DNA from: Myxococcota bacterium
GTDB lineage: Bacteria > Myxococcota_A > UBA9160 > UBA6930
Length of the DNA stretch: 64,000 nucleotides
Assembly (NCBI GenBank): GCA_965223415.1
Contig: OZ245002.1
Coordinates: forward strand, 4,384,001 to 4,448,000
Direction: 5' to 3'
The notes under the pieces are model-generated. The model saw nothing but the letters and a program-made list of their open reading frames with translations. It made no database searches and was not told the origin of the DNA. A program made the translations under genes and the position numbers. Of this stretch, positions 1 to 26,818 are shown piece after piece. The stretch's first letter is position 1. Each line of letters begins with the position of its first letter.

Positions 1-1656
1 TTCTTCACCAAGGTCGAGATGGTCGACGACCTCTGGCACGAGATCCTCCACGACGACTTCCTGGTGCGGCCCCGCCTCTCCCGGATCTACTACGACGGCA
101 AGTTCTTCCACTACCCGCTGAAGCCGATGAACGCGCTGCTCGGCCTCGGGCCGATCGAGGCGGTGCGCATCGGTACGAGCTACCTGGCGGCGATGCTCTT
201 CCCCTCCAAGGAGGAGCGCACCTTCGACCAGTGGGTGTCGAACCGCTTCGGCAAGCGCCTGTTCGAGATCTTCTTCAAGACCTACACGGAGAAGGTCTGG
301 GGCATGCCCTGCACCGAGATGAGCGCCGACTTCGCCGCCCAGCGGATCAAGAACCTCGACCTGATCACCGCCGTGCGCAACGCCTTCCTCGGCGAGCGCG
401 GGAGCGGCGGCGAGGTCGTCACGACCCTGATCGAGCGCTTCCACTACCCCCGCTACGGCCCGGGCCAGATGTGGGAGAGCTGCGTGAAGCGGCTCGCGGA
501 CAAGGGGGTCGAGACGATCCTGGAGACGCGGGTCGACCGCCTGCGCCACGAGAACGGCCGGATCGTCTCTGCGACCGTCACCGGTCCCGAAGGAACCCGC
601 GAAGTGGAGGGCGAGCACTTCCTCTCGTCGATGCCCGTGCGCACGCTGCTGAACTGTCTCGATCCCGCGCCGCCGGACCACATCCTCGCGGCGGCCAACT
701 CGCTCCGCTACCGGGACTTCCTCACCGTCGGCCTGATCGTCGACCAGGAGGAGACCTTCCCGGACAACTGGATCTACATCCACTCGCCGGACGTGAAGCT
801 CGGGCGCATCCAGAACTTCAAGAACTGGAGCCCGCACATGGTGCCCGACTCGAGCAAGACCTGCCTCGGCCTCGAGTACTTCGTGAACGAGGGCGACGAG
901 CTCTGGACCTCGAGCGACGAGGACCTGATCGCCCTCGGCGCCCGGGAGTGCGACCAGCTCGGCCTGGCGGCGGCGGACAAGGTGCTGGACGGCACGGTCA
1001 TCCGCATCCCGAAGGCCTACCCGGTCTACGACGACACCTACCAGGACGCCCTGGCCGAGATCCGCGGCTGGCTGGCGAGCCTGCCGAACCTCCAGCTCGT
1101 CGGGCGCAACGGCCAGCATCGCTACAACAACCAGGACCACTCGATGGTCACGGCCATCTACGCCGCGCGGAACATCGCCGCCGGCGCGACGGACTACGAC
1201 GTCTGGGACGTGAACGTCGAGGACGAGTACCACGAAGAGGTGACGGCCGGCGAAAGCGCCGCCGCCAGCGGCGACCGCGCCGTGCCGGGCCGGGTGACCG
1301 AGCACGACGTGATCGAGCTGATTCGCGACGCCTTCGCCCGCTACGACGCGGTGGCCCTGGGCTCCGCCCTGGGCGCCGTGGCCGGCGCCGGCCTCTTCCT
1401 CGCCACGGTGGCCCTGCTGGTGCAGGGCGGCCCGAACGTGGGCGCGAACCTCTCGCTGCTCGGCAACTATCTGCCGGGCTTCGCGGTGAGCTGGCTGGGC
1501 GCCGCCCTCGGCAGCGTCGAGATGGGCGCCGTCGGCTTCGGCTTCGGCTGGCTCCTCGCGAAGCTCATCAACGGCGTGATCGCGCTGGAGGAGCGCAACC
1601 TGATGGCCCAGGTCGAGAGCCGGGCCGTGGATCTCTTCGAGGGGGACGACTCATGA
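1..1656 (+). CDS. FAD-dependent oxidoreductase (amine oxidase/UDP-galactopyranose mutase-like family) with C-terminal membrane domain; 5' end outside window
   Basis: Frame open from base 1 (FFTKVEM...); motifs RLSRIYY, YTEKVWG, FHYPRYGPGQMWE, GRNGQHRYNNQDHSM; hydrophobic C-terminal extension. Confidence 0.8.
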   Translation, partial: FFTKVEMVDDLWHEILHDDFLVRPRLSRIYYDGKFFHYPLKPMNALLGLGPIEAVRIGTSYLAAMLFPSKEERTFDQWVSNRFGKRLFEIFFKTYTEKVWGMPCTEMSADFAAQRIKNLDLITAVRNAFLGERGSGGEVVTTLIERFHYPRYGPGQMWESCVKRLADKGVETILETRVDRLRHENGRIVSATVTGPEGTREVEGEHFLSSMPVRTLLNCLDPAPPDHILAAANSLRYRDFLTVGLIVDQEETFPDNWIYIHSPDVKLGRIQNFKNWSPHMVPDSSKTCLGLEYFVNEGDELWTSSDEDLIALGARECDQLGLAAADKVLDGTVIRIPKAYPVYDDTYQDALAEIRGWLASLPNLQLVGRNGQHRYNNQDHSMVTAIYAARNIAAGATDYDVWDVNVEDEYHEEVTAGESAAASGDRAVPGRVTEHDVIELIRDAFARYDAVALGSALGAVAGAGLFLATVALLVQGGPNVGANLSLLGNYLPGFAVSWLGAALGSVEMGAVGFGFGWLLAKLINGVIALEERNLMAQVESRAVDLFEGDDS

Positions 1657-1973
1657 ACACCCAGGCACCGGCGATCGACGAGCGCTCGCTGATCCAGAAC
1701 GCGGTGGTCCGCATGCGCGCCCGCATCATGGCGGTGGTGTTCGGCATGGTCGGGGGCGTGGGGCTCTTCGCGGCCACCGCGTGGCTCCTGATCAGAGGCG
1801 GCAAGCAGGTCGGCAAGACCCTGAGCCTGCTCGGCAACTACTTCCCGGGCTACGACGTGACCTGGCCCGGCGCCTTCCTGGGTCTCCTCTACGGAGCCCT
1901 GGCCGGCGCCGCCGTGGGCTGGGCCGTCGCCTGGATCTACAACCGCGTGGCCGAGAGCCGGATTCCGGCCTGA
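1653..1973 (+). CDS. small membrane protein, paralogous to the C-terminal domain of the upstream oxidoreductase
   Basis: ATGA overlap with upstream stop; two hydrophobic segments; shares LSLLGNY.PG..V.W.GA.LG. Confidence 0.75.
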   Translation: MNTQAPAIDERSLIQNAVVRMRARIMAVVFGMVGGVGLFAATAWLLIRGGKQVGKTLSLLGNYFPGYDVTWPGAFLGLLYGALAGAAVGWAVAWIYNRVAESRIPA

Positions 1974-1985
1974 CCCGAGGCCCTG

Positions 1986-2708
1986 GTGCGCGCCGCCCTG
2001 ACCTTCCACGGTGTCGACGGCACCGGCTCCGTCCTGTCGGTCTCGCCCCAGGCCCTCGCGGGCCTGGTGGACGCGGTGCGAGACGCCGGCCACGAGATCG
2101 TGGCCCTGGCCGAGCTGATGGAGAAGCCGGAGCGGCCCGACCGGGTGGCCCTGACCTTCGACGACGGCTTCCGCTCGGTCCACGAGGCGGCGCTCCCGGT
2201 GCTGCGGGAGGCCGGTGCACCGGCCACGCTCTTCCTCACCACCGGCGTCCTGGGCGGCGACAACCACTGGCCGGGCCAGCCGGACTGGGCGCCGCGCTTC
2301 CCGATGCTCGACTGGGACCAGGTCGAGGCGCTCCACGCCGCCGGCTGGGCGATCGAGGCCCACACGGCCGGGCACCCGGACCTGCGGGCGTTGTCGGACG
2401 ATGCCCTCGAGAGCGAACTCCGCGCCGCCGACGAAGCCATCGAAGCGAGGCTCGGCCGGCGCCCCGAGGCCTTCGCCTACCCCTACGGATACCACGACGC
2501 CCGGGTCCGGGCGCGGGCCTCCGCCCGCTACCGCTGGTCCTTCACCACCGAGCTGGCGCCGCTGCGAGGCAGCGACGACGCGGCGGCCCTGCCGCGGCTC
2601 GATGCCTTCTACCTGCAGAGCCCCTGGACCCAGGCCCGCTTCGACACCCGGGGCTTCTATCTCTACCTGGCGCTGCGCCGCTTCCTTCGCGGGGTGCGGG
2701 GCTCGTGA
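1986..2708 (+). CDS. polysaccharide deacetylase family protein
   Basis: LTFDDG, HTAGHPDL and FAYPYG motifs. Confidence 0.85.
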   Translation: MRAALTFHGVDGTGSVLSVSPQALAGLVDAVRDAGHEIVALAELMEKPERPDRVALTFDDGFRSVHEAALPVLREAGAPATLFLTTGVLGGDNHWPGQPDWAPRFPMLDWDQVEALHAAGWAIEAHTAGHPDLRALSDDALESELRAADEAIEARLGRRPEAFAYPYGYHDARVRARASARYRWSFTTELAPLRGSDDAAALPRLDAFYLQSPWTQARFDTRGFYLYLALRRFLRGVRGS

Positions 2709-3718
2709 CCGCGGTCTCGGCGATCATGCCCGTGTTCGACGGCATGGGCTACCTGCGGGAGAGCCTGCCGCCGCTCCTCGCCCTGGTGGAGGCGGGGAAG
2801 CTCTGCGAAGTGCTGGTGGTGGACGACGGCTCCTTGGACGGCTCCGGCGCCTGGGCCGCCGAGCGCGGTGCCCACGTGCTCGAGACCGGCGGCCGCATGG
2901 GGCCCGGCGCGGCGCGCAACCAGGCCGCGGAAGAGGCGCGGGGCGACGTGCTGCTCTTCGTCGACGCTGACGTGGTGATCCATCCGGACGCCGTCGACCA
3001 CGCCCTCGTCGCATTCGAGCGTCCGGAGGTCGTGGCCGTGTTCGGCAGCTACGACGACGCGCCGCCGGATCCGGCCTTCGCGAGCCAGTACATGAACCTG
3101 CGCCACCACCACGTCCACCATCGGGCGGCGGGGGAGGCCAGCACCTTCTGGGCCGGCTGCGGTGCCGTGCGCAGGGCCGCCTTCCTGGCTTGCGGCGGGT
3201 ACGACGCCGAGCGTTTCGCGCGGCCGAGCGTCGAGGACATCGAGCTGGGCTACCGGCTGCGCCGGGCGGGCGGGCGCATCGAGCTGCTGCCCGCCATGCA
3301 GGGCACCCACCTGAAGAAGTGGACGCCCTGGAGCGTGATCCACACCGACGTGGTGTGTCGCGCGCTGCCCTGGTCGCGCATGCTGATCGCGGAGCCCGAG
3401 GCGGCGCCCGACCTGAACGCCGGTACCGCCGAGCAGGCCAAGGCCGTCCTCGCGGGGTTGTTCGTGCTCTCGCTCCCCGCGGCGCTGCAGGGCGGGCTCT
3501 GGCCCGCTGTGACGGTCGCCCTGTTCGCGGCGGCCATCGTCGTGAACCGCGGGCTCTTCGCCGTCTTCCGCCGTCGCCGCGGCCTGCTCTTCGCCGTGAG
3601 CGCGATGGCCTTCCATCAGCTCTACTACCTCTACAGCGGCGCCGCCTACGTCCTCTGCTGGCTCGAGCACCGGCTTGGCCGGGGCGCGCGCGTCGGTCAC
3701 ACGGGAGAGCCCGGTTGA
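2705..3718 (+). CDS. glycosyltransferase family 2
   Basis: GTGA overlap; VVDDGSLDGS, GPGAARN, FVDAD, EDIELGYRL; C-terminal TM segments. Confidence 0.9.
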   Translation: MTAVSAIMPVFDGMGYLRESLPPLLALVEAGKLCEVLVVDDGSLDGSGAWAAERGAHVLETGGRMGPGAARNQAAEEARGDVLLFVDADVVIHPDAVDHALVAFERPEVVAVFGSYDDAPPDPAFASQYMNLRHHHVHHRAAGEASTFWAGCGAVRRAAFLACGGYDAERFARPSVEDIELGYRLRRAGGRIELLPAMQGTHLKKWTPWSVIHTDVVCRALPWSRMLIAEPEAAPDLNAGTAEQAKAVLAGLFVLSLPAALQGGLWPAVTVALFAAAIVVNRGLFAVFRRRRGLLFAVSAMAFHQLYYLYSGAAYVLCWLEHRLGRGARVGHTGEPG

Positions 3719-3749
3719 GCCCCCAGCGCCTGGCCATGGAGACGGTGGG

Positions 3750-5207
3750 TTGAGCGACCCGCAGCACATCGACAGCGGGGACGTCGGCCTGCCGCTCGCC
3801 GTGGACCTGGATGGCACGCTGGTGGCGACGGACACCCTATGGGAGAGCACCCTGGCGCTGCTGCGGGAGCGCCCGCTGCGCGCCCTGGCCCTGCCGCTGT
3901 GGGTGCTGGGCGGGCGCGCGCGCTTCAAGAGCGAGCTCGCGGCCCGGGCCCGTCCCGACGCCGCGGCGCTTCCCTATCGCCAGGAGGTCCTCGCCTACCT
4001 GCGCGAGGCGCGGGAGGAAGGGCGGCCGGTGATCCTCGCGACCGCCAGCCACCAGGAGATCGCGCGCTCGGTGGCGGATCACCTGGGCCTCTTCCACGCC
4101 GTGATGGCGAGCGAGGGGGGCGTCAACCTGAAGGGCCCGCGCAAGGCCGACGCCCTCGCCGCGGCCTTCGGCGAGCAGGGCTTCGAATACATCGGCGACG
4201 CGGCTGCGGACCGGCCCGTCTTCGCACGCGCGGCCGCTGCCTCCTGGGTGGGGCGGGACGAGCGGGAGGCGGAGCGGGCGACCGAGGGGGCTCCGCTCGC
4301 CCGCACCTTCCGGGTGCCCCGGGCCGGCCCGCGCACCTGGCTGCGGGCCCTGCGCGTGCACCAGTGGGTGAAGAACGTCCTGATCTTCGTCCCGCTCCTC
4401 GCCTCCCACCGCTTCACCGAGGTGCCGTTCTGGGGGTTGGCACTGCTGGCCTTCCTCTGCCTCTCCCTGTGCGCGTCGACGGTCTACGTCTTCAACGACC
4501 TGATGGACCTGAACGCGGATCGCCTGCATCCCACCAAGTGCCGGAGGCCCTTCGCGGCGGGAAGGCTCTCCATTCCCCAGGGCCTGGCGGCGGTTCCCCT
4601 GCTGCTCGGGGCCGGGCTCGGGCTCTCCCTCGCGTTCCTGCCCCCGGTGTTCACCGGCTGCCTCGTCGCGTACCTGATCCTGAACGGCATCTACACCTTC
4701 GGTCTCAAGAAGGTCGCCATCGCCGACGTGATCTTCCTGGCGTGTCTCTACAGCCTGCGCGTGCTGGCCGGCGGGCTGGCCCTGGACATTCCGGTGTCGC
4801 CCTGGCTGATCGGCTTCTCGCTCTTCTTCTTCCTGAACCTGGCCTTCCTGAAGCGCTACGCGGATCTGCGGCTGGTCGAGAACGAGGCGGGGAGCAGCTC
4901 GCCCGGGCGCGACTACGCCGTGGCCGACGCGCCACTGCTCCTCTCCCTCGGGCCGGCGGCGGGTTACATGGGCGCCGTGGTGCTCGCCCTGTACGTGCAG
5001 AGCGACAAGGTGGCCACCCTCTACTCCCGGCCCGAGGTGCTGTGGGCGCTGATCCCGCTGGTCGCCTACTGGATCAGCCGGGTCTGGCTGCTCGCCCACC
5101 GCGGCCAGATGGACGACGACCCGGTGCTCTTCGCCACCCGGGACCCGCTGTCCTACGCGGTGCTGGCCCTCGGCGTGGGCATCCTCGGGGTGGGCGCGAT
5201 TCTGTAG
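3750..5207 (+). CDS. HAD-like + UbiA family prenyltransferase (polyprenyl-phosphate phosphoribosyltransferase-like)
   Basis: VDLDGTL HAD motif; RVHQWVKN, NDLMDLNADRLHPTK.RPFAAG, HRGQMDDDPV; start codon (TTG) uncertain. Confidence 0.85.
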   Translation: MSDPQHIDSGDVGLPLAVDLDGTLVATDTLWESTLALLRERPLRALALPLWVLGGRARFKSELAARARPDAAALPYRQEVLAYLREAREEGRPVILATASHQEIARSVADHLGLFHAVMASEGGVNLKGPRKADALAAAFGEQGFEYIGDAAADRPVFARAAAASWVGRDEREAERATEGAPLARTFRVPRAGPRTWLRALRVHQWVKNVLIFVPLLASHRFTEVPFWGLALLAFLCLSLCASTVYVFNDLMDLNADRLHPTKCRRPFAAGRLSIPQGLAAVPLLLGAGLGLSLAFLPPVFTGCLVAYLILNGIYTFGLKKVAIADVIFLACLYSLRVLAGGLALDIPVSPWLIGFSLFFFLNLAFLKRYADLRLVENEAGSSSPGRDYAVADAPLLLSLGPAAGYMGAVVLALYVQSDKVATLYSRPEVLWALIPLVAYWISRVWLLAHRGQMDDDPVLFATRDPLSYAVLALGVGILGVGAIL

Positions 5208-5246: not shown

Positions 5247-5615
5247 TCAGCCTTCCTCGGCCCGCACGGCCTCCATCGGGCGGAGCAGCACCGGGAACCA
5301 GTGAGGCACCGTGTGGGGCTCCCGGGGCGGCGCCTTCTCGACGGGAAGGTCGAGAACCCTGCCGTCCCGCTTGTAGGCGGACTTGTGTCCCGGGATCGAG
5401 GCCAGCTCCCCGCGCTCGAGCAGCGCCAGCACCGCGTCGAAGAGCGCGCGGGGCGCGCCGGCCCAGACCACCCGGTTGCCCGGCAGTACGATCTGGGTCT
5501 CCTCCCGGGCGTCGCCGGCGAAGTGCTCGTGGAGGGCGGCGAAGGTCACGTAGTCGTGTGCGCGCACGAAGGCGAGCACCTGCGCCTCGAGATCCGCCGC
5601 GGCCGTCTCGCTCAA
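5247..5615 (-). CDS. hypothetical protein resembling SaPI Ppi (phage packaging interference) family
   Basis: 122 aa; 4-nt overlap with upstream phosphatase; motifs NRVVWAG, YKRDGRVLDLPV, HWFPVLL recalled as typical of SaPI Ppi-type proteins. Confidence 0.6.
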   Translation of the reverse strand: MSETAAADLEAQVLAFVRAHDYVTFAALHEHFAGDAREETQIVLPGNRVVWAGAPRALFDAVLALLERGELASIPGHKSAYKRDGRVLDLPVEKAPPREPHTVPHWFPVLLRPMEAVRAEEG

Positions 5616-6226
5616 GCCCGCTCGTCCAGGTGGACCGTCTCGTTGAAGTGGACCAGCTCCGCCGGATCCGACATTCGCAGATCGGTGACCGCCGCGTTGT
5701 CCATCGTGCGGCGCCAGGAGCGCGGGTCACGGTCCACCAGCCAGCCGAAGGCCAAGGTGAGGGCGCCGGCATGGCTCACCACCACGCAGCGCTCACCCGG
5801 GTGCTGCGACGCAATCGCGCGCAGGGCGCCAGAGAGCCGCTCGGCCACCTGCCGGGCCGACTCCCCTCCGCCGGGACGCCAATCCGGATCGGCGTGCATG
5901 CGCTCGAAGAGTCGGTGCTCCGTCATCAGCTCGTGGTAGGTGAGGCCTTCCCACTCGCCCAGGTGGTACTCCTGGAGGTCCTCCCGCACGCGGAGCTCGA
6001 GGCCGAGGGCCTCGCCGATCGGCCCGGCGGTGTGCAGCGCGCGGGTGAGCGGGCTCGAGTAGAGGGCCACCGCATCGGCGCGGGTCCGCGCCAGGTGGGC
6101 GGCCACCCGCTCGGCCTGGACATGGCCCTCGTCGCTGAGGGGCGTGTCCGTCGAGCCGTGCCACACGCCGCCGGTGTTGGCCGGCGTCTGGCCGTGGCGA
6201 ACGATGGTGAGGAGAGCGTGGGTCAT
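5612..6226 (-). CDS. histidine phosphatase (phosphoglycerate mutase family)
   Basis: RHGQT, SSPLTRA, LQEYHLGEWEG, VVSHAG motifs. Confidence 0.9.
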   Translation of the reverse strand: MTHALLTIVRHGQTPANTGGVWHGSTDTPLSDEGHVQAERVAAHLARTRADAVALYSSPLTRALHTAGPIGEALGLELRVREDLQEYHLGEWEGLTYHELMTEHRLFERMHADPDWRPGGGESARQVAERLSGALRAIASQHPGERCVVVSHAGALTLAFGWLVDRDPRSWRRTMDNAAVTDLRMSDPAELVHFNETVHLDERA

Positions 6227-6269: not shown

Positions 6270-7460
6270 TTAGCCCTCGGCTTCTCTCCGCCAGCGGACC
6301 AGCCAGCCGGCGAGCGCTTCCGGGGTGTTGCGGCTCGGATCCTCGAGCACGCGGTCCGCGAGGAAGGCGAGGGCCTGGCCGATGCGGGGGCCCGCCGGCT
6401 CGCCGAGCGCCTCCATCACGTCGCGGCCGGACCAGGCCAGGGTGGGAGCCTCGGCGGCGGTCATCGCGTCCGCGAGCTCGCGCAGCTCCGCGAGCCGGGC
6501 CAGGGGCGCGGCGATCGGCTCGTCTCCCAGGGTCAGCTCCTCCTCCCGAAGCACGCAGAGCCCCTCGAAGGCCTCGCGGCCGCCGAGCCGGCGGAGCGCC
6601 TTGCCGAGGCTGCCCGGTCGCGGCGCGACCATCCGGTCGACGGGGTGGAAGGCCAGTCGCCGCTCGATGGCCCGGCTGCGGTCGCGCGGCATGCGCAGCC
6701 GCGCCAGCACGCGGCCCGCCTGCCCTCCGCGCAGCCAGCCGGTCCAGCGCAAGACCCGATCCGCGGGCAACCGGCGGAGGAGCTGCGCGGCGTCCGGGCG
6801 CGCGCGGGGGGCGAGGGCCTGCTCGAGGCCGGTCTCCCGGAGCCAGGCGAGGGCCCGGTCCGGAGCCTCGGCCAGGAGCAGCGCTTCCAGCTCGAGTCGC
6901 AGCCGCGCGCCCAGGGCCTCCGGCAGGGCCGCCACCGCCGCGGCTGCGGCCCGGCCGAGGGCCTCGCTCGCGGCCAGGTCCAGCTCGGCCATCAGGCGAG
7001 CCGCGGCGACGGCGATCAGCGGATGGGCGAGGCGCGCAGCGCCTCCTGCCGGGCCGACGCGCCCGGCCACCAGGTCGGCACGCCCGTCCCAGGTATCCAC
7101 CCATTCGCCCGAGAGCGGCTCCAGGCCGAAGGCGGTCACGCTGAGGGTCGCGTCGGCCAGGGCCTTCTCGAGGGGGGCGCCTGCCGCTGCCAGCTCGACG
7201 ACCAGCGGGTGGGTTCCCGGCCCCGGCGCGGGGGCGAGCGCACGGCGCCCCACGCGGATCGGCCCGCCCGGCGGCCCCGCCACCGCGCCGGCGAGGCTGA
7301 GCAGGGCATCCCCGTCGGCTTCGCACAGCAGCCGCAGGTCGCGCGGAGCGCGGCCGGCGAAGAGCTCGCGGGCGGCGCGTCCCACGACGAGGCAGCGGAC
7401 ACCCCGGGCGAGGAGCACGGCCGCGAGGTCTCGAACGGGTTCCGGAACGGGGGTGCTCAC
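6270..7460 (-). CDS. CCA-adding/poly(A) polymerase-like nucleotidyltransferase with degenerate catalytic motifs
   Basis: Layout CLVVGRAARELFAGRAPRDLRL ... VDTWDGRADL ... C-terminal SGRDVMEALG..GPRIGQAL...VLEDPSRNTPEAL; GTG start inferred. Confidence 0.7.
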   Translation of the reverse strand: MSTPVPEPVRDLAAVLLARGVRCLVVGRAARELFAGRAPRDLRLLCEADGDALLSLAGAVAGPPGGPIRVGRRALAPAPGPGTHPLVVELAAAGAPLEKALADATLSVTAFGLEPLSGEWVDTWDGRADLVAGRVGPAGGAARLAHPLIAVAAARLMAELDLAASEALGRAAAAAVAALPEALGARLRLELEALLLAEAPDRALAWLRETGLEQALAPRARPDAAQLLRRLPADRVLRWTGWLRGGQAGRVLARLRMPRDRSRAIERRLAFHPVDRMVAPRPGSLGKALRRLGGREAFEGLCVLREEELTLGDEPIAAPLARLAELRELADAMTAAEAPTLAWSGRDVMEALGEPAGPRIGQALAFLADRVLEDPSRNTPEALAGWLVRWRREAEG

Positions 7461-7561
7461 CCAGGGAGTGTACGCGCGCCTCCGAGCCGGGCTCGCACGG
7501 CCGGGCCCCCGGCCCCCGGCGGCGCGGGCTCCACGGGGCCGGATGGGCGATACCCCGGGGC

Positions 7562-9331
7562 GTGACCCGGCTCTTCTTCCGCATGCCCGGGGTGCCACTC
7601 GATGTGGACGAGGTGTGGCGACGCCTCGGCCGGCCCGGTGCCCGCAAGCAGCCGCTGCGCCGCGCCTCGCCGGGGAAGGACGGCTTCGCGCCCGGCGAGC
7701 CGGTGACCGGCAGGCGCCTCGAGGCGGGCCGCGCCTTCTGCGTGGAGGTCCGGCCGGTGCGGCACTTCCGGCCGCCGGAGGCCCCGCACCTCCGCGTCCT
7801 GTGCGGGCCCCTGGCCTGGCCCGAGGGCGAGGCGCCCGGCCTACGCTTCCGCACCGTTGCGGAACGGGGTCTCCTCCGGGAGCTCGCGATCGAGCTCGAC
7901 ACGCCGGCGCCGGGGTTGGCGCTGGACGGGCTGGCTGTCCTCGGTGCGCCGGCCCTCGGCGACGTCCGTCGCGGTGGCGTGCTGGTGGCGGGGGGGCTGC
8001 GGGTGCGCGAGGCGGGCACCCCGCCGCCGCCCACCTGGTGGCCCGACGAGCCCGCCTTTCCTCCCGACGACCTCGTGCCGGACGTGCCGGTCTCCAGCGC
8101 CACCGCCCGCGCCCTCGAAGGCGGCCATCCGTGGGTGCGCGCCGACGCAGGGCTGGGGGACGTCGGCTGCGTGCCCGTCGGCGGACGCATCCGGCTGCGC
8201 GGGCCCGATGGGCGCGATCTCGGCCTGGCCCGCTCGGACGGGGAGGGCGACCTGGCTGCCCGGCGCTGGGCCGGGCCCGGCGACGAGGGGGCCAGCACGG
8301 CGGAACGGGTCGCGGCGGCGGTGGCGCGGCGCGCGGCCCTCCACGCCGCCGCCGACGACACCGACGCCTATCGCCTGGTCCACGCCGAGGCCGACGGTCT
8401 GCCGGGACTGGTGGTCGATCGGTTGGGTCCGGTGGTGCGGGTGCTCGTCCAGGGCCGCGCGGCCCTGGGCCTGCGCTCGCAGGCGATCGCCGCCCTGCGC
8501 GCAGGCCTGGCCGACCCGCTCGGCGCAGCGCCGGCGATCTTGGAGGTGACGAACCTGCAGCGGCCCCGGGGAAGCCGCCTCCGGGGGGTGCACGCCCACG
8601 ATCCCCTGCCCGTCGACGAGGCCGGTCGCCTCGTGGTGCGGGAGGCGGGCCTTCGCTTCCGGGTCGATCCCGGATTCGCCGAGCCGTACCGCCCACGCCC
8701 GGGCATCGGCCTGTTCCTCGACCAGCGCGAGAACCGCCGGCGCCTCCGCGCCGAAGCCCGGGGTGGGCGCTTCGCCAACCTGTTCGCCCACACCGGCGCC
8801 TTCAGCCTGGCGCTGCTAGCCGGCGGAGCCGCAGAGGTGTGGAGCGTCGATCTCTCGCGCGCTTACCTCGCACGGCTCGAGGAGAATCTCGAGCTCAACG
8901 GGCTCGGCGCGGCCGGCCATCACGGGGTGCGTCGCGATGCGCGCCGCTTCCTGGAAGAGCGGGCGCAGGACGCACCCCGCTTCGATGGCATCGTGGTCGA
9001 TCCGCCGACGGCGGCCGCTTCCGGGCGCCGCTACTGGAGCGTGCGTCGGGATCTCGGGCCGCTCCTGGCGCGGGCCTGGCGGCAGCTCGCGCCCGGCGGG
9101 TGGCTGCTCGTGACCCGCAACCTGCGGGATCGACGGGGCGGGCTGGCCAGCCTCGCGCAGGAGGCCGCCGCAGCCGGCGGCGGCGGCCTCGACCGCCTCG
9201 AGCAGGCGCCGCCGGGGCCGGATTTCCCGCGCCTGCCCGGCTTCCCGGAGGGCGACCCCTTCGAGGGGCAACTCATGCGCAAGTCGCGGGGGGAAACCGC
9301 CATGCAGCACGGTTCTCTCGCAACTCCCTGA
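7562..9331 (+). CDS. class I SAM-dependent rRNA methyltransferase (RlmI/RlmK-like) with N-terminal extension
   Basis: GHPWV PUA-like segment, YRLVHAEADGLPGLVVDR, GLFLDQRENR, NLFAHTGAFS, VDPP. Confidence 0.8.
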   Translation: MTRLFFRMPGVPLDVDEVWRRLGRPGARKQPLRRASPGKDGFAPGEPVTGRRLEAGRAFCVEVRPVRHFRPPEAPHLRVLCGPLAWPEGEAPGLRFRTVAERGLLRELAIELDTPAPGLALDGLAVLGAPALGDVRRGGVLVAGGLRVREAGTPPPPTWWPDEPAFPPDDLVPDVPVSSATARALEGGHPWVRADAGLGDVGCVPVGGRIRLRGPDGRDLGLARSDGEGDLAARRWAGPGDEGASTAERVAAAVARRAALHAAADDTDAYRLVHAEADGLPGLVVDRLGPVVRVLVQGRAALGLRSQAIAALRAGLADPLGAAPAILEVTNLQRPRGSRLRGVHAHDPLPVDEAGRLVVREAGLRFRVDPGFAEPYRPRPGIGLFLDQRENRRRLRAEARGGRFANLFAHTGAFSLALLAGGAAEVWSVDLSRAYLARLEENLELNGLGAAGHHGVRRDARRFLEERAQDAPRFDGIVVDPPTAAASGRRYWSVRRDLGPLLARAWRQLAPGGWLLVTRNLRDRRGGLASLAQEAAAAGGGGLDRLEQAPPGPDFPRLPGFPEGDPFEGQLMRKSRGETAMQHGSLATP

Positions 9332-9440
9332 TTCTCCTCGAAATTTCTCGCGACATTTTTTTTTCCCCGCGGCCACTCACCAGGTGAGCCGATGCAACCG
9401 CTCCTCCGGGCGGTGGCTCGTTGGAGGGTGAGAGGAGTTG

Positions 9441-10187
9441 ATGCCCATGACCGCCAAGCCTTCGTTCCACCGGGTCCGCGCCCTGCTGCTGGCCGCCGCG
9501 CTCGTCGTCACGAGCGCCGCTGCCTCCGCGACCCCGGTCGATCTCTTCTTCAACGGCACCGTGCCGTCCTCGGACGGGAACTTCTACGGGCTCTCGGCCC
9601 AGGCACAGACCGACTTCCTGGCCAACGGCGGCCAGGTGCTCGGCGGCATGCCGATGTTCTCGCTGGTCGGAATGAAGATGACCATCGCGAACCCGTTGGA
9701 CATCACGGCGAACTACGTGCCAGGAGGACCTAACTTCCTGACCAACCCGGCGCAGGATCAGAACACCTGGAGCTTCACGGCGAACCAGCAGCTGAACGAC
9801 GTGTGGATCGTGCTCCGCGGCCACGACCCGACCGACGTCCTGGGCATCAACAACTTCGCTGGGGGCTATCTGCCCCAGAACGTGGGGCTCAACATCGACC
9901 CCATGAGCACGACCGACATCTGGCGAATGGTGAACCTGCCGGCCATGGGTGGAGAGCCGGCGACTTCCTATCTTGCGCTCTACCTCGGGGATCTGGCTCC
10001 GGGGCAGACCGTGACGAAGACGTTCTTCTACCGCGTCACGCAGGACATCATCACCAACCCCTCGTCGGGAGATCTCCAATTTCCGCAGCATCTCGTTGGC
10101 CTGATGTTTGCCCCGGTGCCCGAGGCCGGAACCCTGCTGCTCCTCGCGACCGGCTTGGCCGCGGCGCTGCGCAGCCGCCGCGCGTGA
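9441..10187 (+). CDS. PEP-CTERM sorting-domain surface protein
   Basis: Signal peptide (...SAAASA); C-terminal VPEAGTLLLLATGLAAALRSRRA; RBS AGGAG upstream. Confidence 0.8.
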   Translation: MPMTAKPSFHRVRALLLAAALVVTSAAASATPVDLFFNGTVPSSDGNFYGLSAQAQTDFLANGGQVLGGMPMFSLVGMKMTIANPLDITANYVPGGPNFLTNPAQDQNTWSFTANQQLNDVWIVLRGHDPTDVLGINNFAGGYLPQNVGLNIDPMSTTDIWRMVNLPAMGGEPATSYLALYLGDLAPGQTVTKTFFYRVTQDIITNPSSGDLQFPQHLVGLMFAPVPEAGTLLLLATGLAAALRSRRA

Positions 10188-11815
10188 GCCTCCGCCGGGT
10201 CGCTGCCAGCCTGGCCGCGGCTCTGCTGCTGGCGGCGCCCACGGACACCTTCGCGCAGGACGATGCGGCCACGTCGCGGGCCGCCGTCCTCGAGCGCTCC
10301 GGCCGCTGCAGCGAAGCCCTGGATGTCCTGTCCGGGGTGGGTTCGCCCAGCGCGGATCAGCGCTTCCTCCGCGGGCGCTGTCACATCCAGCTCACCCAAT
10401 ATCCCGCCGCCGTCACGGAGCTTGGCCAGGCCCGCAGTGCCGACCCGACGCTGCCCCACGTCGAGCTCTACTACGGCATGGCCGCGTATCACCTCGGGGA
10501 CATCCCGGCAGCGGAGGAGGCGATCGCCAAGGCGCGGGCCGGCTCGCAGGATCGGGCGGAGCTGCACCTGTACGACGGGCTCCTCGCCCTGCGTCGCAAG
10601 CAGAGCGCCGAGGCGGCGGCCTCGCTGGAGCGCGCGCGGGCCATGTCGGACTCGGTCGAGCCCACGGCTTCCTACTACGCCGGGCTCGCCTACGCCGGGG
10701 CCGACGACGCAGACCGGGCCGTCGTGGCCCTGGACCGGGTGATCGCGATGGAGCCCGCGGGCAGCGAGTGGGCGGAGGAGGCCCGCAAGGCCAAGGAGCG
10801 CCTCGACACGGCCGAGGGCGGGTCCTGGTGGGCTTGGGGCAAGTTCGGCGTCGAGTACGACGACAACGTCGTCTTGCGCCACCAGGGCGGCCTGCTGCCC
10901 CGGGGCATCAGCGGCGTCCACGACATGCGCGCTGTCTGGATCCTCCACGGCGGCTGGGAGTTCATCCGCGAGAAGGAGTGGTCGGCGGGCACGGCCTTGA
11001 CCTACTACGGCTCGTCCCACTTCGATCTCGAGGACTTCAATCAGCACAACCCGGTGGTGAGCCTGTGGGTCGACCGGCGGCTGGCGAAGCCCACGACCCT
11101 GCGCCTCCGCTACGACCTGAGCCACTCCTGGATCGACAGCGATCCCTTCCTCCACAGCCACACGCTCACGCCCACCCTCTTCCACGAGTGGGGAGAGGCG
11201 GCCGGCCGCTCCAAGGTCTTCGCCTCCTTCTACGACTACAACTTCCTCTACGAGGACGACGGCGAGGTGCCGGACGGCCGCGGGCGGGCGTTCTCGCGCT
11301 GCCTCAGCCCCGGCACGCTCTTCTGCTCGCCGCCGGGCATCCGCGAGGGCGAGGATCGCAACCAGGACGGCTGGGGAATCGCGGCCGGCGTGGACCACTC
11401 GATCCCGCTGGGCTTCGCAGACACCGAGCTCACCCTCGGCTACCGCTGGGACCGCTACAGCTCTCGGGGCAGCGAGTACTCCTTCAGCGCCCACCAGTTC
11501 CGGGTCGAAACGGATACGCAGCTCCCGCACGACTTCCAGCTGCGCACCCTGGTGGCCTACACGCTGCGACCCTACCGGAACAACTCCAGCTTCCCGGATC
11601 CCCAGGACGTCTTCTTCAATCTCGAGTACCCGCTGCAGAACGAGAACCGCCGGGACGACGCCTGGTACTTCGCGGTGGAGCTCGAGAAGAAGATCACGGA
11701 CGCGTTTTCGGCTGAAGTGGCGTACCGCTACATCAAGAACCACTCCAACGTGGCGGTTTTCGACTATGACCGGGAGATCCTCGGCTTCTACGTCACCTAT
11801 CGGCTCGAGGAGTGA
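10184..11815 (+). CDS. TPR-repeat protein with C-terminal outer-membrane beta-barrel
   Basis: GTGA overlap; signal peptide; TPR-like helices, then GVEYDDNV barrel start, alternating aromatic strands, YIKNHSNVAVFDYDR. Confidence 0.7.
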   Translation: MSLRRVAASLAAALLLAAPTDTFAQDDAATSRAAVLERSGRCSEALDVLSGVGSPSADQRFLRGRCHIQLTQYPAAVTELGQARSADPTLPHVELYYGMAAYHLGDIPAAEEAIAKARAGSQDRAELHLYDGLLALRRKQSAEAAASLERARAMSDSVEPTASYYAGLAYAGADDADRAVVALDRVIAMEPAGSEWAEEARKAKERLDTAEGGSWWAWGKFGVEYDDNVVLRHQGGLLPRGISGVHDMRAVWILHGGWEFIREKEWSAGTALTYYGSSHFDLEDFNQHNPVVSLWVDRRLAKPTTLRLRYDLSHSWIDSDPFLHSHTLTPTLFHEWGEAAGRSKVFASFYDYNFLYEDDGEVPDGRGRAFSRCLSPGTLFCSPPGIREGEDRNQDGWGIAAGVDHSIPLGFADTELTLGYRWDRYSSRGSEYSFSAHQFRVETDTQLPHDFQLRTLVAYTLRPYRNNSSFPDPQDVFFNLEYPLQNENRRDDAWYFAVELEKKITDAFSAEVAYRYIKNHSNVAVFDYDREILGFYVTYRLEE

Positions 11816-11840
11816 CTCACTGGTCGAGGAGGTCTCACCC

Positions 11841-12812
11841 ATGACCTGCACACGACTTGCAATGGCCCTGCTGCTGGCCTGCCTGGCCATGCCCGCCTTC
11901 GCGGGGGGCGACCCCGAGGGGGCGGATGCCGGATCGAACGGAGCCGGTGATCGCACCGCCGCCGATCTCCCTCCGGTTTCCTCCGCGCCTCCCCTTGCCG
12001 GCGCGCCGGCGGATCTCTCCTGCAACGGGGATCCCGACCAGATCGTCGGTCACGTCGTGGCCCTGGCGGGTTCGGTCCATGCCCAGCGGCCCGGTGAGGA
12101 CCAGCGGGCACTCGCCTGCAACGATGCGATCCACGCCTGCGACACGCTCCTCACCACCGCGGGCTCGCGGGTCGGCGTGCTGACGGGCAACCTCTACGCC
12201 CATGTCGACACGGACAGCCGGCTGCAGATCGGAACGGCCGGTGACCAGCCGAGCCTGATGCTCCACGCCGGCGGGCTGCGGGTGATCGACCCCCGGGGTG
12301 CCGGCGCCGCGGCCGTGCCGATGAGCACGCCCCACGTGGCGACCCAGGCCCTCGGCACGGACACGGAGCTGTTCGTGAGCGACCCGAGTCGCACCCGCCT
12401 GTGCAACCACCTGGCTTCGCTCCGGGTGGCCGGCACCGGTGGCGGTGATCCCCTGGACCTGGCCAGTGGCTGCGCGGTGAGCTCCGGCCTCGGCGTCGCG
12501 GCGGCACCCGCCTCGGATCCGAGCATCGGCGTGCAGGAAACGCCGAGCTGCGAGATCGAGCTGGCGGGGATGTTCACGCCGTATGACGTGTCGGCGGACA
12601 TCGGCTTCGACGCGTTCCCGAACGTGGCCGCGGCCGACAACTGGCGGCGCGGGGCCTGCGAGGCGAGTAACTGCCGCAACCAGGTCACGCCGCAGCCTCC
12701 GCCGCGCCGGATCATCCCGCCGCGGCCGCCCTCGCGCTTCCGCGTGGTCGATCCCACGCCCGGCACCGGCTGCGGCGGCGCGGGCTTCGGCTGCGGAGGC
12801 AACAACGACTAG
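11841..12812 (+). CDS. exported FecR-like domain protein, Cys-rich C-terminus
   Basis: Signal peptide; VGHVVALAGSV...AIHACDTLLTTAGSRVGV...STPHVATQALGT matches FecR-like beta-domain pattern. Confidence 0.6.
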   Translation: MTCTRLAMALLLACLAMPAFAGGDPEGADAGSNGAGDRTAADLPPVSSAPPLAGAPADLSCNGDPDQIVGHVVALAGSVHAQRPGEDQRALACNDAIHACDTLLTTAGSRVGVLTGNLYAHVDTDSRLQIGTAGDQPSLMLHAGGLRVIDPRGAGAAAVPMSTPHVATQALGTDTELFVSDPSRTRLCNHLASLRVAGTGGGDPLDLASGCAVSSGLGVAAAPASDPSIGVQETPSCEIELAGMFTPYDVSADIGFDAFPNVAAADNWRRGACEASNCRNQVTPQPPPRRIIPPRPPSRFRVVDPTPGTGCGGAGFGCGGNND

Positions 12813-24726: not shown

Positions 24727-25105
24727 ATGATCATGGCAAGGTCCAGTCCGCCGTCTACGGGCGTTTCGAAGTGAAGAGCATCGCCAGGTGGCGCCGATTC
24801 ATGGAGCTCCTGTACGGCCTCGAGCTGAAGCCATCGACGAGGCCGGGCGAGTTCGAGGCGGTCGTCGACGACGCGGGCTCTCGGCTGCTCTTCTCCGAGG
24901 GGCCGGCGGAGGATCTCGTCGCATACGGATGGCTCTGTGACTGTCATTTCTCACGGGCATGACTCACCTTTTCTCACGGGCATGACCCAGGCCTGACCGC
25001 GGTTTTCTCACGAGCATGACCCACCCCAGATGGGGGGGGCTCAGGAGGAGGCCGGTCCCGTGGCCGACCCAGGCCATTCTGCGGCGCCAGAGGAGGCGCA
25101 GGCAG

Positions 25106-26818
25106 ATGGCGTATCGCGAGGTCGGCATGTGGGAGATTCTGGAGGTGCTCCGCCGGGCGCACCGAGGCGAGAGCCAGGTGGCGATGGCGCGGGCCACGGG
25201 GCACACGCGCAAGACGATCCGGCGCTACGTGCAAGTCGCCGGGGAGCTGGGCTGGGTCGCCAGGGGGCCGAGGGAGCCGGATGAGGCCCTGGCCCAAGGG
25301 GTGGCGGCTCGGGTGCGGCCTGTGCCCACGCAGCGCGACGCGGGAGAGAGCGAGGCGCAGCTGGCGCCGCATGCCGACCGGATCCGAGCGTGGCTCCAGC
25401 CCGAGGCGGGTGGCCGAGGACTGCGGCTGACGAAGGTCTACGACCTGCTCGGGCGCGAGGGCGTGCGCGTCCCCTACAGCTCGCTCCACCGCTTCGCGGT
25501 CCGCCACTGCGGGTTCCAAGACCGGCGCCGGGTGACGGTGCGCATGGCGGCGGTGGCCCCCGGCGAGCTCGCCGAGGTCGACTTCGGCCGCCTCGGCATG
25601 GTCTGGGATCCGGAGACCGGGCGCCGCCGCACCGTTCATGCCCTGATCGTCACCCTCGTCCATAGCCGCCACCAGTACGTCCACGTGACCTACGGCCAGA
25701 AGCTCCCCGATCTGCTCGAGGGGCTCGAGGACGCCTGGGCGTTCTTCGGCGGGGTCCCGGTGCGCGTGGTGCTGGACAATCTGAAGGCGGCCGTCACGAA
25801 GGCCGACCGCTACGAGCCGATCTTCCAGCGCACCTTCGCCGAGTACGCCCACTACCGCGGCTTCGTCATCGATGCCGCCGTGCCTCGGCATCCCAAGGGC
25901 AAGCCCCACGTCGAGCGCCAGGTGCAGTACGTGCGCGAGCGCTTCTTCCGTGGCGAGCAGTGGCTGGGACGCGACCACGTGCAGCGCGAGGCCGCGCGCT
26001 GGTGCCTGGAGGTCGCCGGCCAGCGCACTCACGGGACGACGCGCAAGAGGCCCCTGGCCGTCTTCGAGAACACGGAGAAGCCGGCTCTGCAGCCCCTCGT
26101 GCGCCCGCGCTTCGATCCGCCCACCTGGGCCGAGGCGAAGGTCCACCCCGACCACCACGTCCAGTTCCAAAAGGCCTTCTACACCGTGCCCACCCGCCAC
26201 GTGGGCAAGCGCGTCTGGGTTCGCGGCGACTCGAAGCTCATCCGCATGTACGTCGACGGCGAGTGCATCAAGACCCACGAGCGCGTGGACCCTGGCTGCC
26301 GCTCCACCGACTACCACGACTATCCGCCCGAGCGTGCCCCCTACGCCATGCGGGACCCGGAAGCGGCGATCCGCCAGGCGCGCGACCAGGGGCCTCACAT
26401 TGGGCGCTTCGCCGAGAAGCTCCTGGCCGGCCCCTTCCCCTGGTCCAAGCTCCGCCAGGCCCAGAAGCTGCTTCGCCTCGGCCACAAGTACGGCCTGCCG
26501 CGCGTCGACGCCGGCTGCCGCAGGGCCCTCGCCTTCGACCTCATCAACACGAAGCGCCTCGAACGCATCGTGGCCGAAGGCATCCAGCCGCTCGGCGACC
26601 CCAGCACCCCCGGACAGCTCCTGCTCCTGCCGCCCCGTTTCCTGCGCCCGCAAGGGCACTTCACCCACCCCAACGACAACCCCGACAAGGAGACCACCCC
26701 CCATGACGACCGAGATCAACCCGTCCCTCAAGACCCTGCTCAAACGCCTGAAGCTCTCGGGCATGCTGGCCACGCTCCCCGATCGCGTGGCCTACACCCG
26801 GAAGACGAAGCTCCCTGA
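25106..26818 (+). CDS. istA: IS21 family transposase IstA
   Basis: N-terminal HTH; EVDFG, VLDNLKAAV, PKGKPHVER DDE motifs; HGTT. Confidence 0.93.
   Translation: MAYREVGMWEILEVLRRAHRGESQVAMARATGHTRKTIRRYVQVAGELGWVARGPREPDEALAQGVAARVRPVPTQRDAGESEAQLAPHADRIRAWLQPEAGGRGLRLTKVYDLLGREGVRVPYSSLHRFAVRHCGFQDRRRVTVRMAAVAPGELAEVDFGRLGMVWDPETGRRRTVHALIVTLVHSRHQYVHVTYGQKLPDLLEGLEDAWAFFGGVPVRVVLDNLKAAVTKADRYEPIFQRTFAEYAHYRGFVIDAAVPRHPKGKPHVERQVQYVRERFFRGEQWLGRDHVQREAARWCLEVAGQRTHGTTRKRPLAVFENTEKPALQPLVRPRFDPPTWAEAKVHPDHHVQFQKAFYTVPTRHVGKRVWVRGDSKLIRMYVDGECIKTHERVDPGCRSTDYHDYPPERAPYAMRDPEAAIRQARDQGPHIGRFAEKLLAGPFPWSKLRQAQKLLRLGHKYGLPRVDAGCRRALAFDLINTKRLERIVAEGIQPLGDPSTPGQLLLLPPRFLRPQGHFTHPNDNPDKETTPHDDRDQPVPQDPAQTPEALGHAGHAPRSRGLHPEDEAP

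Follow-up and report, generated by a model that had tools for sequence, protein, structure and literature searches.

A Ppi-like gene on a Myxococcota chromosome overlaps a histidine phosphatase gene and is fused with it in some relatives

The 64,000-nucleotide stretch of Myxococcota chromosome analysed here, which we call the window (contig OZ245002.1, positions 4,384,001 to 4,448,000), contains a small gene resembling ppi (phage packaging interference) from the pathogenicity islands of Staphylococcus aureus (SaPIs). Sequence comparison makes the 122-aa product a genuine if remote homologue, with ~24% identity, of the protein that SaPIs encode at the ppi position. The gene is the last of a three-gene operon on the minus strand, its start codon overlaps the stop codon of a histidine phosphatase gene, and in some relatives the two genes form a single reading frame. 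We propose, with confidence and doubt in about equal measure, that a Ppi-family binding module has been recruited as a partner or a domain of this phosphatase. The features at the centre of the argument are the following.

5247..5615, minus strand: Ppi-family (PHROG 7134) gene, 122 aa, TTG start, last cistron of the operon, from the open reading frame (ORF) and its translation
5612..5615, minus strand: TTGA start/stop overlap, formed by the phosphatase TGA stop and the Ppi-like TTG start, which indicates translational coupling
5612..6226, minus strand: branch-1 histidine phosphatase, 204 aa, matching PF00300 (His_Phos_1) with E 2.6e-51

The first-pass annotation of this DNA, made from the letters alone, gave no strand for the Ppi-like ORF. 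The motifs that it quoted (VLAFVRAH..TF, NRVVWAG, FDAVLAL, YKRDGRVLDLPV and HWFPVLL) are all found in the 122-aa translation, and the 4-nt coupling that it claimed is real, the bases TTGA at 5612-5615 being common to both genes. The ORF is a genuine gene and not a chance frame, as seen from its GC content by codon position (0.79/0.46/0.93 in a window of 71% GC), its relatives and the dN/dS values given below. A total of 132 proteins match the window protein at E<=1e-3, and the 120 listed among them share 61-100% identity with it. Searches of Pfam, NCBIfam and PADLOC returned nothing usable, and in PADLOC-DB 2.0 the protein found no family even at E<=10. Matches of the window protein in 50,697 phage records were at chance level by tblastn (E 0.09-5), as was the single match in a profile search of Protein Data Bank (PDB) sequences (E 0.82).

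The kinship with Ppi was established by profile comparison. The sole PHROGs family for the window protein is phrog_7134 ('unknown function'; E 1.6e-6, residues 8-112 of 122), which is also matched by the SaPI protein P0272 (E 1.2e-62), and BLASTP aligns the window protein directly with P0272 over residues 9-111 (24% identity, E 3e-9). For hhalign we built A1, a profile of 37 close relatives of the window protein; A2, an alignment of 56 sequences made up of 54 hits of the A1 cluster search and two members of the close clade; and A3, an alignment of 28 staphylococcal sequences. A1 matched P0272 with 96.2% (E 2.1e-9), A3 with 97.7% (E 1.6e-12, 105 columns), the copy from a pac SaPI with 96.2% and the copy from an element of Lactiplantibacillus resembling a phage-inducible chromosomal island (PICI) with 95.5%. 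A2, which includes intermediates, matched P0272 with 99.8% (E 5e-28). Three other small proteins of the same SaPI, taken as controls, gave a probability of 0.05-0.21% (E 0.29-0.84).

All 56 sequences of A2 match phrog_7134 (best E 7e-27). Among these diverse members W51, P91 and W106 do not vary and Y81, D84 and G85 scarcely do, and the window protein retains the family-wide invariant residues. It falls into PHROG 7134 by full-length profile similarity and, compared with the SaPI protein and A3, consists of a single domain of ~110-125 aa with NxxxWxG, YxxDGxxLxLP and HWxP in collinear order. The likeness to Ppi that the first-pass annotation had pointed out is thus borne out by phrog_7134, BLASTP and hhalign, the comparison with the SaPI protein being significant where the controls are not; the size and motif series that it named (..H..(T/S)F, NxxxWxG, YxxDGxxLxLP, HWxP) are likewise all present in the SaPI protein. 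One could still hold that the likeness arose by chance or convergence and that the protein belongs to an unrelated family, given a pairwise identity of just 24% and the fact that no record we saw gives the staphylococcal protein the name 'Ppi' (in NCBI and UniRef it appears as 'pathogenicity island protein'). We find this scarcely credible, since four independent profile tests reach significance along the whole length while three controls do not, and since the intermediates connect the two ends of the family, with every one of them in phrog_7134.

The passages of the cited papers that concern Ppi report that it binds TerS, the phage's small terminase, and prevents packaging (PMC5052747, PMC10530653, PMC6739421, PMC6532042; all citing Ram et al. 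2012), and one adds that the exact mechanism 'remains to be deciphered' (PMC6739421). These passages describe Ppi only in staphylococcal islands; no Ppi homologue was reported in an enterococcal island (PMC3675006) or in a Marinitoga plasmid (PMC11921389). Our search of the literature for Ppi relatives outside Staphylococcus found nothing relevant, with 'Ppi' an ambiguous term and subscription journals outside its reach, and it found no paper on phrog_7134. As far as the published map descriptions available to us go, ppi lies between ori and the packaging module, has ori upstream of it and is ORF8 of SaPIbov5. The map position of the staphylococcal reference gene, after rep and ori, agrees with the published one, and on this position, by which alone the name is tied to the sequence, we are highly confident that the gene is Ppi.

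Satellite maps show the family gene in this position. The record NZ_CP095113.1 (L026) reads int, two helix-turn-helix (HTH) regulators, DUF1474, primase, a VapE-type rep gene, a 285-bp gap and the Ppi-family gene (120 aa), followed by five genes, cpmB, a 'spore coat protein' gene, one further gene and terS, and this is the map of a classical pac SaPI. OL690335.1 likewise has int, SaPI regulators, pri, rep and a 285-bp gap before P0272 (114 aa), which is the first gene of a block ending with a 352-aa gene. Using P0161 as the tblastn query against 72,556 plasmid records, we obtained five matches, four in S. aureus (14-16 kb, circular) and one in Lactiplantibacillus plantarum (16.2 kb). The L. 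plantarum record (NZ_CP032651.1; L025, 1-16201) is a head-to-tail dimer of a ~8.1 kb element, each copy of which has int, three HTH genes, two hypothetical genes, VapE, a 274-bp gap and the Ppi-family gene; although filed as a plasmid, it looks like a circularised PICI-like satellite.

Several of these database entries are filed under other kinds of replicon. The 14-16 kb S. aureus records filed as 'plasmids' (NZ_CP095113.1, NZ_CP045469-71) have SaPI gene maps from int to terS, and ON856257.1 and OL690335.1 (L001 and L002), filed as 'Staphylococcus phage' genomes, carry SaPI genes, one of the two being a mosaic with repeated phage segments.

The wider family is large. The A1 search of 1.84 billion cluster representatives (50% identity) gave 1,266 matches at E<=1e-3 and 220 at E<=1e-10, nearly all of 100-180 aa and aligned end to end, and neither Pfam nor NCBIfam has a model for the family. 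Longer members have low-complexity tails or unexplained extensions, and among them no fusion to a second enzyme was seen. The clusters closest in the ESM Atlas are hypothetical proteins without names, and about half of the annotated members are viral; the automatic name 'Immunity protein 35 family' carried by one cluster was rejected, as no Pfam scan supports it, and a search confined to named entries gave nothing usable. With three distant family members as tblastn queries, the 50,697 phage records yielded two matches, both S. aureus 'phage' records carrying SaPI genes. One distant member, P0143 (244 aa), has an N-terminus that by eye resembles an AlpA/excisionase-type HTH before the Ppi-like domain, which would fit an island context.

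The link between the Ppi-like gene and the phosphatase is seen at the junctions of the two genes. We scanned 185,579 species genomes with A1, and 91 pattern matches led to 23 confirmed and 22 distinct loci; 20 of these are titled Myxococcota, Myxococcales, Deltaproteobacteria or delta proteobacterium metagenome-assembled genomes (MAGs), and the remaining two carry just the label 'bacterium' or are binned as Spirochaetales. In 15 of the 22 (L003-L014, L019, L021, L023) the phosphatase gene is the one immediately upstream of the Ppi-like gene, and one locus, L024, is an uninformative contig-end fragment. Of the 15 phosphatase-linked loci, 12 show an NTGA start/stop overlap, as the window does, while L023 has a 95-nt gap or an alternative start. 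This overlap of stop and start codons means that the phosphatase and the Ppi-like protein are made together.

In L009 (7377-8333, plus strand; 318 aa) and L012 (7365-8342, plus strand; 325 aa), both genes are read in one frame with no stop, and in the fused ORFs the Ppi-like part comes after His_Phos_1, which occupies residues 13-195. A third fusion is P0061, a metagenome protein of 207 aa that is cut at its N-terminus. The three fusion junctions are alike (FNEC.H.L, a five-residue linker, RVL..V) and L009 and L012 are sisters in the tree, indicating that the fusion was inherited and is no accident of assembly. The AlphaFold2 (AF2) model of the L012 fusion has a mean predicted local distance difference test (pLDDT) score of 87.6 and a predicted template-modelling (pTM) score of 0.77; in our judgement, formed without an inter-domain error map, this pTM exceeds what two freely hinged domains would be expected to give, and we regard it as suggestive. 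A complex prediction with the separate phosphatase and Ppi-like protein scored 0.00 and gave no verdict, and we use it neither for nor against binding.

In the phosphatase itself, R10, H11, G12 and H152 are invariant in the 15 orthologues, which thus have the RHG motif and the second catalytic histidine. All NCBIfam matches are below the cut-off, the best being the acid phosphatase domain of the Rv2228c type (E 4.1e-36) and CobC, and among solved structures the closest relatives are phosphoserine phosphatase 1, glucosyl-3-phosphoglycerate phosphatase, a PhoE-type phosphatase and CobC. In PADLOC-DB 2.0 the phosphatase returned only weak noise of the SAVED/CARF type (E 3e-3 to 7e-3).

Synteny extends beyond the gene pair. 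The comparison was made by tblastn with eleven neighbour proteins of the window against the 22 loci, so that the 15 phosphatase-linked loci were checked against the window's own neighbour set. A gene for a protein resembling CCA-adding enzymes and poly(A) polymerases, here called the nucleotidyltransferase (NTase), precedes the phosphatase gene in 13 of the 15; of the two exceptions, L008 is cut inside the phosphatase and L011 has just 504 nt upstream. A HAD-UbiA fusion gene lies downstream in 12 of the 15. Many loci share a wider block of a TPR/outer-membrane gene, a PEP-CTERM gene, the methyltransferase, the operon, HAD-UbiA, GT2, deacetylase, a small ORF and an FAD oxidoreductase.

The Ppi-like gene evolves as a conserved cellular gene would. 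Our tree holds 104 rows and 125 columns (the window, 21 loci, 54 distant members and 28 staphylococcal sequences), with L024 and the two redundant close-clade rows of A2 omitted. All 22 Myxococcota rows group in a single clade (SH-aLRT 100), whose stem measures 1.34 changes per column and whose tips measure 0.02-0.36, compared with a whole-tree median of 0.71. The staphylococcal sequences form a clade of their own (93), the six loci with other gene contexts form a subclade (92), and most of the deep forks are unresolved with 125 columns. The gene was vertically inherited from a single origin within the one clade. Over the 15 loci, identity to the window is 58-82% for the Ppi-like protein, 56-80% for the phosphatase and 36-62% for the NTase, and the Ppi-like identity exceeds that of the phosphatase in 14 loci and equals it in one. 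By the Nei-Gojobori method, applied to 15 sequences (105 pairs; L008, with its cut phosphatase, left out), the Ppi-like gene has a median omega of 0.255 and the phosphatase one of 0.334, and in 87 of the 105 pairs it is the Ppi-like gene that has the lower dN. Since dS is compressed by the extreme GC content at third codon positions, only this comparison between genes is meaningful; it shows that purifying selection on the Ppi-like gene is at least as strong as on its phosphatase neighbour. The pattern fits a conserved cellular gene and not an arms-race weapon. The segment before the HW motif also differs, reading VEK..P.EPH.EPHW in the Myxococcota clade and AKR....GYK.PHW in the wider-family consensus, and this change together with the long stem of the clade suggests a change of partner.

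From the coupling and the fusions, together with the single origin and the slow pace of change, we suggest that the module now works with the histidine phosphatase. The Ppi-like module would act by binding another protein, as Ppi does, with no catalysis and no DNA binding of its own, and it would either gate the phosphatase or direct the phosphatase to a target. Several points weigh against recruitment to the phosphatase. The physical association of the two proteins is one that we infer, as are the binding mode and the target. The fusions could be tolerated accidents, since overlapping genes fuse readily via small indels. The only function demonstrated in the family, in the passages of the cited papers that treat it, is the binding of phage TerS (PMC5052747, PMC6739421, PMC6532042). 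Finally, six of the 22 loci (L015-L018, L020, L022), the members of the one subclade, have no phosphatase nearby. In L018 and L022 the Ppi-like gene follows an enoyl-CoA hydratase gene with a GTGA overlap, in L020 it follows an alpha/beta hydrolase gene with a TTGA overlap, in L017 it starts 2 nt behind a NUDIX gene and precedes a Sir2-family gene, and in L015 and L016 it stands alone between a short-chain dehydrogenase or dienelactone hydrolase gene and a methyltransferase gene. The partner is therefore inconstant across the clade.

None of the 24 flanking proteins scanned at these six loci is a mobile-element protein, and int, pri, rep and terS products are missing from them as well. As a separate observation, the NUDIX/Ppi-like/Sir2 trio of L017 (7423-9211) has an NAD/ADP-ribose flavour.

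The other end of the operon in the window consists of the NTase gene, separated from the phosphatase gene by a 43-nt gap, and of the region upstream of it.

6270..7460, minus strand: CCA-adding-enzyme/poly(A)-polymerase-like protein (NTase), 396 aa, first cistron, matching tRNA_NucTran2_2 (E 3.9e-6) and PolyA_pol_RNAbd (E 1.2e-3)
7461..7561, no strand: divergent intergenic region that separates the operon from a SAM-dependent methyltransferase gene (7562-9331, plus strand), presumed promoter region from the gene coordinates

A scan of 7461..7561 for a sigma-70-type promoter gave no match. In the window NTase the catalytic head domain is degenerate and PF01743 is not matched. The head motifs GGxxRD, DWD, RDFTxNA and EDPLRALRA are intact in L007, L009, L010, L013, L019 and L021 and lost in the window and L003-L006; PF01743 is kept by the orthologues of L007, L009 and L019 (E 1.6e-19 to 4.8e-14) and undetected by Pfam in those of the window, L003 and L005, the three scanned among the motif-less ones. 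With its head motifs lost and its ORF still open, the window NTase looks like a pseudoenzyme. The intact CCA-adding-type first cistrons and the trio shared by most phosphatase-linked loci would suit a role in RNA or tRNA-end processing, in which an ancestral operon of cca, phosphatase and Ppi-like gene existed and the Ppi-like protein helps both enzymes act on tRNA 3' ends or nucleotides. We judge this decidedly unlikely, given that the NTase head has decayed in the window sub-lineage while the Ppi-like gene stays highly conserved, that no RNA-binding family matches the Ppi-like protein and that most clade members are acidic.

The structural model bears on whether the protein could be a DNA binder. 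The AF2 model of the window protein (pLDDT 76, pTM 0.72) has helices at 3-20, 25-32, 56-67, 78-82 and 114-121 and strands at 71-75 and 109-113, suggesting a small alpha/beta protein, loosely winged-helix-like; its poorly defined stretches hold the conserved NRVVWAG and DGRVLDLP motifs. Foldseek found no match at E<=1e-3 in the PDB or in the viral structure database BFVD. The nearest solved folds are the winged-helix proteins PadR/LmrR, MarR and RTP, which resemble the model in size and in the order of helices and strands, with a best E of 0.16 and a query-normalised TM of 0.34-0.46, neither of which makes the match significant. From these folds one might take the protein for a small winged-helix transcription regulator of the operon. 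We consider this very unlikely: there is no significant fold match and no Pfam HTH family match, the isoelectric point (pI) is below 7 in 35 of 37 clade members, and a last, translationally coupled cistron that also occurs fused to an enzyme would be unusual for a repressor. The core regions are near neutral, so that the charge analysis is not decisive; given the acidic pI of most clade members, the protein is not a typical DNA binder.

The best viral structural match is BFVD A0A514U199, an uncharacterised 115-aa protein of Gordonia phage Phendrix (E 2.4e-3, TM 0.57/0.60, 20% identity), which on the strength of the models is possibly a family member from a true phage.

The surroundings in the window are those of a bacterial chromosome, consisting of housekeeping and envelope genes. 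A HAD-UbiA fusion gene converges on the operon, ending at 5207, and other genes encode BipA, SerA, PurA, a sigma-54 activator, ExbD, ABC transporter parts, a GT2 glycosyltransferase, a polysaccharide deacetylase and a PEP-CTERM protein. The Pfam scan of the surroundings took in 46 window proteins, with the 9803-11815 ORF and six ORFs of 60-89 aa outside it. Among these 46 there is no integrase, primase, terminase, capsid or portal domain, and none is an int, pri, rep or terS product, so the gene lacks the island position that its satellite relatives occupy; the first-pass statement that no integrase, primase or terminase lies nearby, and that no satellite surrounds the gene, holds for them. 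The only mobile-element signal in the scan is a 600-aa ORF at 25016-26818 (plus strand) with a Mu-transposase C-terminal domain (E 2.4e-16), which lies ~19 kb away between TetR-family genes.

The operon also sits in an envelope/exopolysaccharide-type block (window 19-5207 and 9438-12812) that is syntenic across MAGs. This block contains an FAD oxidoreductase with a weak match to UDP-galactopyranose mutase, a polysaccharide deacetylase, a GT2 glycosyltransferase and the HAD-UbiA prenyltransferase fusion, together with a PEP-CTERM protein and a large outer-membrane-type protein.

These results let us weigh the two functions that the first-pass annotation had put forward, a unit of an NTase-like protein, a phosphatase and Ppi, and a stand-alone defence factor. 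The unit fits best, the trio being syntenic in 13 of 15 loci with its last two members coupled or fused. A stand-alone factor, domesticated from a satellite, would bind TerS of pac phages and block their packaging while riding at the 3' end of constitutively expressed operons. It is favoured by homology to a gene at the SaPI ppi position with the family's invariant tryptophans and proline retained across the 56 members, and by TerS binding as the sole function known for any member (PMC5052747, PMC6739421). Moreover, the four different kinds of gene that precede the Ppi-like gene in the six outlier loci fit a rider without a fixed partner, and the ease with which overlapping genes fuse keeps the idea alive. 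We nevertheless hold it to be unlikely, though more deserving of attention than the other alternatives. PADLOC has no match for the protein, no defence or mobile genes lie near it among the scanned window proteins and its surroundings are of the housekeeping and envelope kind. The gene is inherited vertically within one clade under purifying selection at least as strong as that on the adjoining enzyme, the phosphatase fusion is maintained in three sequences, and the stem and the pre-HW segment hint at a new partner. As the direction of descent, a satellite origin of the module is plausible.

Compared with known systems, the closest is SaPI Ppi itself, which belongs to the same family by profile tests and has a similar length (113-125 aa for most staphylococcal members, 122 aa here) and the same collinear motifs, with no catalytic family matching either protein. 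The differences are that the two proteins share only ~24% identity; that the satellite gene follows rep and a ~280 bp gap, in the Lactiplantibacillus PICI-like element as well, while the window gene follows a phosphatase gene in a housekeeping-type operon; and that the Myxococcota gene is vertically inherited, slowly evolving and fused to a phosphatase in some relatives. Rpp (redirecting phage packaging), from cos PICIs of Escherichia coli, is a small satellite protein described, in the passages concerned, as binding phage TerS (PMC6739421). It is a functional analogue of Ppi, compared by function only, and our general searches turned up no sequence link. The winged-helix proteins PadR/LmrR, MarR and RTP differ from the Ppi-like protein in lacking a sequence-family match to it and in the acidity of most clade members. 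Like the Myxococcota fusions, the RNase H/acid phosphatase of the Rv2228c type joins a branch-1 histidine phosphatase to a second, non-phosphatase module; in the Myxococcota fusions, the attached module is a C-terminal Ppi-family domain. To our knowledge, no described histidine phosphatase carries such a domain.

A further idea is that a TerS-binding module of satellite origin was built into a cellular enzyme as a sensor, so that a phage protein such as TerS, by binding the Ppi-like domain, would switch the phosphatase and with it the cca-linked unit. We see this as a long shot; if true, it would represent a new kind of phage-sensing effector, and it would expose the mechanism of Ppi as a general bind-and-gate module.

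The Ppi family is a large one without a Pfam or NCBIfam model, and one of its branches has become a fixed part of a bacterial chromosome, where it is coupled to a histidine phosphatase and at times fused with it. The natural fusions and the slowly evolving, soluble-looking orthologues could be used to study the fold and the binding surface of the family, and the orthologue set lets one ask whether a satellite weapon became a cellular part, or the reverse.

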